From contig JAGIQG010000043.1 in assembly GCA_024679065.1 (NCBI GenBank), forward strand, positions 1,426,001 through 1,490,000: a stretch of 64,000 bases of DNA, in the 5' to 3' direction. A model generated the notes under the pieces. That model saw only the letters and a program-made list of their open reading frames with translations. It did not search any database and was not told the origin of the DNA. How positions within the stretch are numbered: the stretch's first letter is position 1; the number at the start of each line of letters is the position of its first letter. The DNA is from Sphyrna mokarran. Taxonomy: Eukaryota. A program made the position numbers and the translations under genes. Below are positions 37,205 through 49,127 of this stretch, in pieces.

Positions 37205-37296
37205 AATTTAATGGAACACCAAATTCATTCCCAAATCTTGTGTGTCTCGCTGCAATTGCCTTCCTTTGGATTCTCCTTATTCGGGGAATACAGTGA
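37205..37296 (+). CDS. LRC-like receptor: terminal exon EFNGTPNSFPNLVCLAAIAFLWILLIRGIQ* (short TM or GPI signal)
   Basis: Strong acceptor ttcttttttttcag, phase-1 entry compatible with exon C, a 15-aa hydrophobic run, then TGA. AATAAA signals at 37350-37355 and 37418-37423. Confidence 0.75.
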
Positions 37297-37349
37297 GAAA
37301 AGTTGTCCATGCACCTTTGAAGCTTGCTGGCTCCAATAATTCATTCTGG

Positions 37350-37423
37350 AATAAATTCAACTGCAAATCTACATTTTTTGTCTATGTCGTGCTGTTAATG
37401 TGTTTTGTTTTCACGTAAATAAA
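37350..37423 (+). terminator. Polyadenylation signals (2x AATAAA) of the LRC-like gene
   Basis: AATAAA 54 and 122 nt after the stop codon, with a GT-rich tract between them (~37383-37412). Confidence 0.5.
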
Positions 37424-37919
37424 TTTCAACAATGTGCTGAATGCCTATCCCAGTATGAAGACTCCAAGTGCAGTAAAATGACGCCCTTTCATACATGAAG
37501 CACATGACATATTTTCTCTCAAGGGAAGGAGGGAAAGACAACAATAAAATGATAGCTGTGGTTTGAGGAAAATAAAGGACGTGGGCAAACGGGTTACCGG
37601 GTAAGTTATGTCATTGGGTTAACAATTCCGTAGTCCAGTGTAATAACTGAATGCAGGAGTACACATTCCACTAGAGCACCTGGTGGAAATTTAACCTCAA
37701 ATATTAACTCTGGAATTGAAAGAATAAAACCATCATTGGCTGCCAAGTAAACCTACCGTGTTTGATAATGACCTTTAGGGAAAGAAAAGAGCAATCCTTG
37801 GTTAGTCTGGTCTGCATGTGAATCCAGCCATTCAATACGGCTGACTCTAAACTTCCTTCTTCATAGCAAAGAATGTATTCAGTTCTACAGCTAGTGAATG
37901 GTGCTAGTACTTTGCCCTT

Positions 37920-38300
37920 TCCAATAGTCCAACAAGCACTCAACTCAAGAGCAGTGAAGGTGCCAACAAATTACCCTCCCCATTCATGTAACAAGGCACC
38001 AAATGCAGGAGCAATGAGGGTGACAGCAAACTGCCATCTCCAATCACCAAACAAGCATTCAGTCCCTGGGAAATGAGTGTGACTGTTAACTGCCCTCCAA
38101 ATGGCCCCGCAAGCATTCAGTTCAAATGATATGAAGGTGACTTTTTATTGCCTCTTCAGTGTTCCAGCAAGTTACTGAATTCTAAAGCAATGAGGGTGCC
38201 AGCAAACTGCCCTCTACCGTTCTCCAACAAGCACTCAGCCCAAGCGCAATAAAATCGAATTTAACTGCTGACACAACAACCCAACAAGCACTTAGAAAAA
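37920..38300 (+). repeat. Degenerate ~59-bp minisatellite (CAAGCACTCAG..GCAATGAGGGTG..AACTGCCCTC)
   Basis: About 6-7 imperfect tandem units, with further units near 38700-38765 and 38990-39050. Confidence 0.7.
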
Positions 38301-39689
38301 GTCAAATAAATTGCTCTCCCCAGTGGGACAAAAAGAGCAAGGAGCTGCCACTAAACTGACCTCACAAACGCCCCATCATAATTGCAAAGTGGTGCACACT
38401 TCTTCCTCGCATCATCAGGGACCTGGGTTCGATATCTGGCTTGAGACACGGTCTATGTCGATTCAAAATGTCCTTTTTTCACACAGGTGCTCAAGATTCG
38501 TCTCCCAGTCCAATGATGTGCGAGTTAGGTTGATTGGCCATGTTAAAGTGCCGCTTAGTGTCAGGGGACGAGCGGGGTGAATACGCGGGGCTATGAGGAT
38601 CCGGCTGGGTGGGATTCTGTTTAGTGCAGAGCCGATTGGCCGAATGGCCTCTTTCTGGTTCTATGAGTCAGAAAGTCATCAGTTCCAAGGTGTCTGTGAC
38701 TATCCAATGGTCAAACAAACGCTCAACTCAAGGGAAATTGGGGTGCCGGCAAACTGCCCACTCCGATGTCTGTTTGGGTACACTAAGGGAGAATTTAGTA
38801 CGGCCAACGCCCTTAATCAGGTTGTCTTTCAGACTGTGGGAGGAAACCAGAGCACCTGAAGGAAACCTACACAGATACTGGGCGACTGTGGAACTCCAGG
38901 CAGACAGTGACCCAAGCCGAGAATCGAACTTGGTTCCCTAGCGCTGTGAGGCAGTAACACAGCCCGAGTATAGTTTCCCATCTTACCTGCGAACAAGCAC
39001 TCAGTTCTCCAGCAATGAGGTTGAAATTAATTGTCCTCACCAATAACCTACAATTCATTTGATTCACGGACAATGGGTCAACGAATGCTGGCATTGGCAG
39101 TGATATTCTCATGCCAGTAGAGAATAGGCAGAAGAAAAGTGATTCCACTTGTTTGGTTTTGGCGAAACCGTACAATGTTGCAACAACCTCTACTTTAATC
39201 ATCAAGCTTCTAAATTTTGTTATTATTTCTAACAACAGTTTCTAACAACAATCATTTCTAATAGCATTATTTCTAACAACAATCATTATTTCTAGCAACA
39301 GTACGCAGTTAGAAACGTGCAATGGTGTTCACCCTGAACTAAATATGGAACATCAGGTCTTCAAAAGCACTCTTGAATTTTGACAATAATTTGGAAAAAA
39401 AAGATGTAAGTCAATAAACAGAAAAATGGTCTTATTGACGTGCATCATGTCCCCCCTCCCCCCAATAATATTCAAAGATTAATTCATGTATATTAATGAC
39501 ATCGATTAACATCCAAGGAGCTACTCACTGACTCGGGTAGAGGTGGTAATGTTAAGATAGAGACGCTGAGAGATACGGAGTGGTTATTGCATTGAAGAAC
39601 AAGAGACGTGTGATTCACTCAAAATGAGATTCCAATTTCTCCAGTCTTCACAGTGATAAATTATAAACACAAATTGGTAGCACTTGTTT

Positions 39690-46400: not shown

Positions 46401-47409
46401 CAAAAAGAAGCATGTCTCTGCTCTGTGCTAAACAATAATGAAAAACAATGCACATCAAAAATGTTTCAAACTAAGGAGCAAAGACAATGTTGTTGAAATA
46501 ACAATATTACTGCCTGTTGCATTCCCCTGCGCAATGGGGCTATCGCTCTAATTCGGATTATGTTTACATCAGCCTGAACATATTCTGTTATCAAAAATAG
46601 CGTAGCAGATTGAAGGAAGGTAGAACAAGAAATTGATGTCTAAAAAATTGTGCCATCCGATATTTGTCTCCCTGTCTACCTCTTTATTTTGTAACCATTC
46701 CTCTCAAACAGCGACACATCAGCATCTCGCCACTGATTATACTTAATGTGGAGATGCCGGCGTTGGACTGGAGTAAACACAGTAAGAAGTCTCACAACAC
46801 CAGGTTTAAATCCAACCAGTTTATTTGGTAGTAATTTCACAAGCTTTCAGAAATGGTGTTCCTTCGTCAGGTGTGTGCAATGTTCTGATCAGGAAAAAGG
46901 CACACAGTTTACAGAATAGTGATTGGAATTCTCATACTAATGTGAATACTAATCGGTACTCTGTGAACTTTATGTGTGTTGTGAGGCTTCTTACTGTACT
47001 GATTATACTTCCCAGGAATCTCCTCACATCCCCACTTCATCTCAAACTCACCACCATATCAGTGTATTCCTTTTGCCTTCATTGGTTTATCCAGCTATTC
47101 CAATGCATGCTTAACTGCTGATCGTGAGTGCTAAAGCACTCACTGTTGGAGTTACTCCCACATTCTCCCCACTCGCTGAGTGAACACATTCCTCATGAAA
47201 TCTCAGCTGGCTTTATTGGAGACTATTAATGGTCCCTTTTTCTCTCTCAACAACTGATTCCTTCAGAGATTGCAATCTATTTATAAGCTCGTAGAATCTC
47301 TAAACTGCAGCAGGAGGCTGTAGGCCCACCGCCACCGAGACAGCGCCAACAGCCGAAAAGAACAACTAAAGCAGACCTTTAAACATCCACATGTTAACCT
47401 CGCTAAAAC

Positions 47410-47800
47410 CCTTACTTTACACATTATTGGACACTTTGGGGCTATTTAGCATGGGCAATCCCCTCTAACTTATTCATCATTGGACACTAGGTGGGTATTG
47501 AGCACAGCCAATTCACCTAACCTTCACATTTGTGGACGCTAAGGGACAATTTAGCATGATCAGTCAACCCAAAATTGCATCTTTGAATAGTAAACGGGGC
47601 AACTTGTCAGGCCAATTTTATCTAACCTTCACATCTTGGGACACTAAGGGGAAATTCAGTATAGCATGTTCACCCAACTTGCACATTTTGGACACGAAGG
47701 GGCAATTCAGTATTGGCCATCCATTTAACCTGCACATCTTTGGTCACTAAAGCGAATTCACATGGCCAATACACCTAACACGAATATTTTTGGAGATTGC
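47410..47800 (-). repeat. Tandem ~50-bp expansion inside an HE1-like SINE
   Basis: Repeated unit GGACACTAAGGGGCAATTTAGCATGGCCAATCCACCTAACCTGCACATCTTT. Confidence 0.8.
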
Positions 47801-47959
47801 GGAAGGAAACCGGGACAGCTGGAGAAAACACATCCAATCACAGATTGAAACACAAACTGCACACAATCACCGGCTGGATTCAAAACCAGCTCTCTGGCGT
47901 TGGTAGGCAGCAGTATTAACTACAGTGTCATCGCCTTTAGACATTTTTTTTCGCTGGAG

Positions 47960-48570
47960 AACTGGAATTCTTGTCCAGGAATATTACAGAGAAGCTGGAA
48001 GTCTTAAAGCTCTTCAAGGTAGATAGATCTGAAGGACCTAATGAGGTACATCCCAGGACGTTGTGGGAAGCTCGGAAGGAAATCGCGAATCCCCTAGCCG
48101 AGATATTTGAATCATCAATAGTCATGAATGAGGCATCTGAAGATTGGAGAGTGGCAAATGTTGTGACTTTGTTTAAGAAGAGCTGTAGGAAAAAAAGAAA
48201 ACTACAGGCCAGCGAGTCTCTCTTCTGTGATGGGTAAATTGTTGGGAGCTATTTTGAGACGGAGGATCTAGTTGCATTTAGATTAATGAGGAACAGCCAG
48301 CTTGGTTATGTGAGTGGAAAGTGATGTCTCACAAATTTAATTGAGTTTTTTGAAGGGGTAACCAAGAAGTTAGATGAGAACAGTGCAGTTCATGTTATCT
48401 ACCTGGACGTTAGCAAGGCCTTTGACAAGATACCACATGGTAGGCTGTTACAAAAGGTTAAATATAATGGAATCCAGAGTGAGTTTTCTAAATGGATACA
48501 AAATTGGTTTCTTGACAGAAGCCAGAGAGTGGCTATGGAGTGTTGTTTTTCAAACTGGAGCCTGGGATCA
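47960..48570 (+). mobile_element. Degenerate CR1 RT fragment
   Basis: PRTLWEARKEIA, EDWRVANVV and SKAFDK remnants. Confidence 0.75.
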
Positions 48571-49082
48571 GAGATGTATCGCAGGCATCAGTAACAGCAA
48601 ATAAAAGCTCGGGATATGATCACCTCTGCAGATTTCATATTCATGTACCCGTAATTCCCAGCTAATTCTTAAATTGCCTAGTCACTTCTTAACCTCACTT
48701 CCAACGCAGATTCACTCTACAATATCCTTGTTAGTCAGCTGAATGGACCACCCTAAACACATTTGGATTGATCCTTTAAAGAAACTTTAATTATACAGCT
48801 TACGTTGCTTTTCAAACTCTGTTTTAGTATATCCCATTATGCTTTGCTCACATAATGTATAAAATGCAGCATGGAACTAAAGACGTCGATGGAGGAAATT
48901 AGAAACCTGAAAAAGGCTCAAGTTGAACCACAAGCGTTATTTAATTGTAGAATAGTTGTCATTAGGAAAATTAAAATAGTGACACCACTGTAAAACTTGA
49001 GCCATAAATCTGTCTGAAGCTGGACATATACATATATATATATATGTGGTATATGTTCAGAACTTCTCTCTTTCCGCTCCAG

Positions 49083-49127
49083 TTAGAGTGTTGGATCCGC
49101 GTTAAAGGCCAGGCGAGCATAAAGCGT
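49083..49127 (-). CDS. VJ-C1 receptor exon 6: terminal cytoplasmic exon TLYARLAFNADPTL* (ITIM/ITSM-like)
   Basis: Acceptor tactttttatccacag, phase 0 matching exon 5. Encodes a TxYxxL motif then TAA. ATTAAA poly(A)-type hexamers lie downstream on the - strand (48940-48945, 48786-48791). Confidence 0.78.
   Translation of the reverse strand, partial: TLYARLAFNADPTL

Follow-up and report, generated by a model that had tools for sequence, protein, structure and literature searches.

A leukocyte-receptor-complex-type gene and a VJ-C1 gene converging in the shark Sphyrna mokarran: a probable local juxtaposition of two receptor families

Background

Non-rearranging receptors that look like antigen-receptor chains, and the C2-type receptors of the leukocyte receptor complex (LRC), are the described systems closest to the two genes studied here, which converge tail to tail in a window of 64,000 nucleotides from Sphyrna mokarran (assembly GCA_024679065.1, contig JAGIQG010000043.1, positions 1,426,001 to 1,490,000 of the forward strand; all positions below are those of the window). 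We call them gene A, which is of LRC type, and gene B, a VJ-C1 gene. The nearest described counterpart of gene B, PRARP/VJC1, ascribed to Fu et al. 2019 and Ohta et al. 2019, is reportedly non-rearranging and is said to have a VJ domain in a single exon, a C1 domain, a transmembrane segment and a tyrosine motif. The genes brd4, notch3, pbx4 and c3 map to 19p13, and the LRC maps to 19q13. Reports of PRARP/VJC1 are cited in PMC10751288, where Table S1 gives the same four genes as hallmarks of the chromosome-19 paralogon of the major histocompatibility complex (MHC). A split leader is a feature of antigen receptors according to PMC12227049, in which UrIg and UrIg2 are located in the MHC and antigen-receptor complex. 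On the side of gene A, C2-only LRC homologues were reported in PMC4016189 (2014) to be absent from sharks and were dated to bony fish, while two genes are labelled LILR-like in a bamboo shark table (PMC7677710 Table S10). As for the deep history of these regions, PMC8302630 derives the MHC, the natural killer complex (NKC) and the LRC from distinct proto-vertebrate chromosomes, each of them a microchromosome in the jawed ancestor, and regards a proto-MHC chromosome uniting the three as an artefact.

The first-pass annotation of the window proposed that the pair preserves an ancestral cluster of natural killer (NK) receptor and antigen-receptor precursors. Its identification of an LRC-like gene and of a VJ-C1 gene holds in our analysis. 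For their neighbourhood we lean towards another origin, namely that a lineage-specific rearrangement juxtaposed two fast-evolving clusters, and that the pair is not an ancestral relic. Genes A and B are intact-looking and belong to unrelated shark immunoglobulin (Ig) superfamily families; both are new members of families already modelled by RefSeq.

Results

The pairing in other sharks

Gene A (plus strand, stop codon at 37294-37296) and gene B (minus strand, stop codon at 49083-49085) stand 11,786 bases apart from stop to stop. Linkage in other sharks was judged by a proxy, the sequence record that bears each annotated protein, in a library clustered at 50% identity. By this measure, the recurrence of the pairing, which the first-pass annotation had proposed to look for, was found in none of the four species having both families (0/4 with both on one record), one of the four, the basking shark, being informative. 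There, three LRC-type proteins, including the best match of gene A (63%), lie on a record of 5,388,364 bases and a fourth on a piece of 105,838 bases, while all five VJ-C1 proteins lie on a record of 7,994,003 bases. Orthologues on different chromosomes had been named in advance as a finding that would speak against ancient linkage; the basking shark would be such a case, provided that the two records belong to different chromosomes. The white shark has three LRC-type proteins, one of them a form with a glycosylphosphatidylinositol (GPI) type tail, on a record of 2,721,611 bases and its single VJ-C1 protein on a record of 396,902 bases, and in the horn shark and Mustelus the two families also lie on differing records. 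The white shark LRC-type accessions precede that of TAPBPL (chr40) by 40-52 numbers, which is too weak for placement and was not used.

Each family by itself is clustered, as the earlier suggestion of tandem arrays had it. Three LRC-type members share the 2.72 Mb white shark record and three the 5.39 Mb basking shark record, and the 25 protein matches of gene B include ten on one horn shark record, five on one from the basking shark and three on one from Mustelus.

Chromosomal placement of the relatives

In the bamboo shark and the sawfish, the relatives do not appear to be located on the MHC chromosome or on one bearing the hallmark genes (brd/notch/pbx/rxr/c3). The bamboo shark LRC-type relative lies on a record of 8,079,144 bases, a length that matches chr50 (PMC7677710 Table S8). 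Five immune genes are listed for chr50 in Table S10 of the same paper, by their labels three FcR-like (Fc receptor-like), one LILR-like and one polymerase, none of them T-cell receptor (TCR) or Ig-like; the table places the MHC and NKp30 on chr37, TCR-alpha and the Ig heavy chain locus (IgH) on chr44, and c3 on chr8. Labels of the TCR-beta-like or "Mem5-like" kind occur on chr8, 39, 41 and 46 in that table and may stand for VJ-C1 genes or true TCR-beta. As a separate observation, going by the automatic labels of chr50, a single small chromosome in sharks may carry C2 genes of both the LRC type and the FcR type.

The sawfish VJ-C1 relative (42% identity) lies on a record of 9,426,723 bases, shorter than the hallmark-gene positions on chr3, 12, 21, 23, 31 and 34 (PMC10751288 Table S1); these are six of the seven chromosomes with MHC-paralogon hallmark genes, psmb6/psmb10 being set aside and chr46 offering no usable length. 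A catshark relative lies on a record of 24,906,204 bases (24.9 Mb) that is compatible with chr25, the C3-bearing chromosome.

Gene A, an LRC-type gene with a predicted lipid anchor

Gene A comprises, on the plus strand, the Ig exon D1 at 1814..2113 (phase 1-1; 67% to the D1 of P0007), the Ig exons D2 at 12580..12876 and D3 at 24631..24930, and a last coding exon at 37205..37296 that ends in TGA and is followed by AATAAA at 37350 and 37418. Joined in frame through GT-AG introns of 10.5-12.3 kb, the exons encode 329 residues, 63% identical to basking shark XP_078390379 over 328 aa. Pfam gives Ig_2/Ig_3 matches on the Ig exons, under the Pfam cut-offs. No leader exons were found within the window; they would lie upstream or in the 159-base gap. 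A decayed extra copy of D2 is present at 5520..5814 on the plus strand (start approximate; tblastn E 2e-11, two frames) and has lost its acceptor AG and gained an in-frame stop and a frameshift.

A PDB search with a profile of five relatives returned 59 matches, 55 of them LRC proteins (PIR-B, LILR, KIR, OSCAR, NCR1, GPVI, LAIR1, CHIR), two FCRL and none CEACAM, a share that has to be read with the richness of the PDB in LRC proteins. For a model of the basking shark orthologue of gene A (pLDDT 86.9), the top ten Foldseek matches are all KIR3DL1 or PIR-B, at 20-23% identity and with low global TM-scores. In a deeper profile LRC chains score higher per domain, but the nine-domain FCRL5 comes first by total score, and because of this the safest label for gene A is LRC-type within the LRC/FcR group. 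The ESM Atlas places the orthologue in Ig_2-type clusters (C17orf99, A1BG, LILRA, 0.91-0.93) and adds nothing on synteny. One RefSeq name suggests a CEACAM5-like protein, a candidate that we rejected, as CEACAM takes none of the 59 matches and is weak in the deeper profile.

A GPI signal is made of small residues at the omega site, a spacer and a C-terminal hydrophobic stretch with no cytoplasmic tail. The last exon of gene A encodes N-G-T, a spacer of six residues, 15 hydrophobic residues and four more before the stop. The same pattern, N-G-small followed by a short hydrophobic end, occurs in all seven relatives with a tail of this class; in four of these seven N-G is followed by Ala, which leaves no glycosylation site there. 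Judged from this pattern, the product of gene A is predicted to be GPI-anchored. It has neither an ITIM (immunoreceptor tyrosine-based inhibitory motif) nor an NxxR transmembrane segment. Because of the predicted GPI end and the lack of a cytoplasmic tail, gene A as read from its exons does not appear to encode a signalling NK receptor. Within its last intron, at 34958-35002 (plus strand), a polypyrimidine AG is followed by a 13-codon frame and a stop, which could be an alternative terminal exon for a secreted form; the relatives lend it no support.

The close relatives of gene A (40-67% identity per domain) form a C2-only, LILR/KIR-like family whose tails are of ITIM, short or GPI type; it is known from seven or more named shark species, in clusters on small chromosomes. 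ITIM-tailed relatives occur in the white shark, the horn shark, Mustelus and the sevengill shark, and a short-tailed form also belongs to the family; six close relatives carry an ITIM and none of the close family carries NxxR. The ITIM-tailed members have VxYASL plus a terminal motif of TCVYAxM type. The copy number of D2 runs from one to four, with three in carpet sharks and one in the basking shark, and domain number in the family varies by exon duplication and decay. In a tree of D3, gene A groups with GPI-tailed lamniform proteins (85/86 support). Among the proteins seen, P0037, P0040, P0041, P0048, P0052 and P0186 belong to this family, with ITIM, short and GPI-type tails, and are clustered in the white and basking sharks, whereas P0180, P0091 and P0081 are more distant LRC-type proteins that carry an arginine where the transmembrane segment begins, as in activating LRC receptors.

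Gene B, a non-rearranging VJ-C1 receptor

Gene B lies on the minus strand and reads through a leader exon of 43 bases at 60966..61008, a single-exon VJ domain at 58109..58447 that carries the end of the split leader and ends in FGNGSKL (Pfam V-set, E 1.1e-15), a C1-set exon at 57625..57930 (Pfam C1-set, E 6.7e-9; Ig constant domains and UrIg2 are among its PDB matches), an exon at 52351..52470 for a connecting peptide with one Cys and an uncharged transmembrane segment, a cytoplasmic exon at 52158..52216, and a last coding exon at 49083..49127 with the motif TLYARL and the stop TAA, followed by ATTAAA at 48945. All introns are GT-AG, and the open frame of 303 aa is 65% identical to a Mustelus protein. 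Gene B has what defines a VJ-C1 gene, that is, V and a J motif joined in the germline in one exon, a C1-set domain, a transmembrane segment and a tyrosine motif, in agreement with the first-pass reading. A search of 49000-61100 found no recombination signal sequence (RSS) within three mismatches. With its tyrosine-motif tail, its uncharged transmembrane segment and no RSS, the gene was rejected as a rearranged or germline-joined Ig/TCR chain.

The motif TLYARL has T at -2 and falls between the consensus of the ITIM and that of the ITSM (immunoreceptor tyrosine-based switch motif), and gene B is predicted from it to be inhibitory. All four aligned relatives in which this exon is present also have the Cys just before the transmembrane segment; a disulphide-linked dimer is possible. 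Of the 25 protein matches of gene B, 23 are from sharks or rays and the other two are salmonid (26-27% identity), with no tetrapod protein among them. A tree of the C1 domain leaves the placement of gene B among sharks unsettled by bootstrap, and the ESM Atlas puts a relative of gene B among V-C1 clusters and again says nothing on synteny.

The interval between the two genes

The interval (37297..49082) contains both 3' untranslated regions, pieces of short and long interspersed elements (SINE/LINE), CA/TG tracts and a reverse-transcriptase fragment. The first-pass statement that some 12 kb separate the stop codons with no recognisable gene between them is borne out, as nothing other than repeats was found. 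Of 98 stop-to-stop frames of at least 50 aa, 95 were scanned with Pfam (the three others overlap the terminal exons), and two gave matches, one being the reverse-transcriptase fragment at 48325-48591 and the other a spider-toxin row at chance level (17.6 bits, the cut-off being 27), which was rejected. Rfam returned no match in the interval, and tblastn with 34 family proteins gave no E value under 0.36. No gene was thus found between A and B by Pfam frames, Rfam or tblastn, searches that small exons of an unrelated gene could escape.

Repeats that occur elsewhere in the window account for 29% of the interval, and for the window as a whole the share of sequence with a further copy inside it is 42%. 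The interval has no N, the sole gap of the window being at 1086-1244 (159 bases), and its GC content is even (0.39-0.45). CA-rich and TG-rich tracts face each other at 39694-40200 and 40896-41528, the latter with a tandem duplication of 197 bases. Elsewhere, young and near-identical LINE reverse-transcriptase fragments lie at 9128-11474, 17343-18589, 20357-21186, 29081-30196 and 55539-57405, inside introns of genes A and B.

The identities of the two genes exceed chance, while no excess over chance is demonstrated for their convergent arrangement, because two neighbours can be oriented in four equally likely ways, of which convergence is one, and because the interval matches the introns of gene A in size. 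Convergence carries no signal here and implies no shared promoter; in both genes the stop is followed by polyadenylation signals at a distance of up to about 140 bases.

Discussion

Origin of the neighbourhood

Under a lineage-specific rearrangement, two receptor clusters of fast turnover on small chromosomes would have been joined by fusion, by inversion or by movement of a GPI-type gene, so that the neighbourhood would go back to fusion of, or movement between, small chromosomes rich in immune genes. The two genes would be transcribed toward each other from promoters separated by more than 59 kb and would share no regulation, each having polyadenylation signals of its own. A GPI lipid would hold gene A at the membrane, and the protein, being unable to signal alone, might work alongside its ITIM-bearing paralogues as a decoy, a co-receptor or a ligand. 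The single tyrosine motif of gene B may bring in phosphatases.

Several points weigh against this origin. In three of the four species one partner lies on a record under 0.4 Mb, and these comparisons say nothing about chromosomes; the two basking shark records, whose accessions (XP_078390139-158 and XP_078390379-490) are not far apart in number, might be parts of a single chromosome. Moreover, the search covered annotated proteins in a library whose 50% clusters hide orthologues, and it could overlook another place where the two kinds of gene are neighbours; the 25 matches include no VJ-C1 protein from a carpet shark. A fusion scar is also absent, as the window has no telomere (TTAGGG) array. 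Some of these points lend a tentative chance, clearly the lesser one, to an old elasmobranch linkage on one small chromosome that fragmented assemblies hide and that is silent on any primordial complex: in lamniforms the records that bear both families are small or unplaced, and the basking shark accessions of the two families are about 220 apart. The basking shark records are nevertheless several Mb each, and neither bears the other family among the proteins found; by its labels, chr50 of the bamboo shark (PMC7677710) likewise lists no TCR/Ig-like gene. A stronger form of old linkage, in which a shark LRC and a VJ-C1 array met on one ancestral jawed-vertebrate microchromosome as a single original cluster that is broken in the lamniform and carpet-shark assemblies, seems to us unlikely. 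Nor do we give much credit to a misjoin of two unlinked repeat-rich regions between the genes, an assembly artefact which we hold to be distinctly unlikely: long CA/TG tracts and the 197-base tandem repeat could invite one, and the relatives are unlinked in the records seen, but there is no N between the genes, base composition passes through without a step, and both 3' ends are complete with their polyadenylation signals.

The ancestral cluster of NK-receptor and antigen-receptor precursors, as first proposed, is in our judgement improbable to a high degree. A supercomplex hypothesis is in print and is quoted in PMC8302630, the domains of gene A are nearest to LRC proteins, and gene B has the anatomy sought in antigen-receptor precursors, with single-exon VJ, C1 and a split leader (PMC12227049). 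Against this, the pairing is seen in no second species, gene A lacks a cytoplasmic tail, and neither family appears to map to an MHC or hallmark MHC-paralogous chromosome in the bamboo shark or the sawfish, catshark chr25 still being a candidate; the joint ancestral chromosome itself is rejected by PMC8302630. In addition, given the fast turnover of both families, local order is unlikely to have lasted 450 million years. The premise that the LRC at 19q13 belongs to an MHC-paralogous region calls for correction, since the hallmark genes are on 19p13 instead. Least probable of all, to the point of being scarcely credible, is a linked receptor-ligand pair kept by selection, in which the GPI-type protein would be a self ligand of the inhibitory VJ-C1 receptor. 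CD48 with 2B4 is a known case of a lipid-anchored Ig protein beside a tyrosine-motif receptor, and the topology here resembles it; the pairing is unseen in other sharks, however, ITIM receptors are supplied by gene A's own family, and adjacency is the sole hint of contact.

Significance

If the linkage were ancient, it would directly support the disputed immune-supercomplex idea and tie the VJ-C1 antigen-receptor look-alike to the LRC. A local rearrangement, as the evidence indicates, matters little, and the LRC-type family of gene A is the better lead. It is probable that sharks have a tandem family of LRC type, whose LILR/KIR-type proteins comprise inhibitory and short-tailed forms as well as GPI-anchored ones. 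No published description of such a family was found in the literature searched, most subscription papers being outside its reach. With this family, LRC-type receptors would have an older origin, in early jawed vertebrates, and its proteins are candidate sensors of MHC class I in sharks.

Comparison with known systems

Compared with LRC genes (LILR, KIR, PIR-B, OSCAR, NCR1, GPVI and chicken CHIR), gene A is alike in its phase-1 C2-type Ig exons and finds there its best sequence and fold matches; its family is alike in forming a tandem cluster, in having ITIM-tailed beside short-tailed paralogues and in the shuffling of domains. On the other hand, identity to LRC proteins is just 20-27%, and gene A has a predicted GPI signal and no NxxR or ITIM tail. 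The closest counterparts are the shark RefSeq models named IGSF1-like, A1BG-like or OSCAR-like (XP_078390379, XP_041035996, XP_043539649, XP_060713021), which share its D1-(D2)n-D3 plan and its tail, and on whose records no VJ-C1 gene was seen; automatic names of this type mislead, according to PMC6557307. Gene B resembles PRARP/VJC1 in the anatomy reported for the latter, and its shark family is a large tandem array. With UrIg and UrIg2 it shares the non-rearranging VJ and C1 and the split leader, whereas C1 domains number three in UrIg, a secreted protein, and 9-11 in UrIg2 (PMC12227049), and gene B has a single one and a tail with a tyrosine motif.

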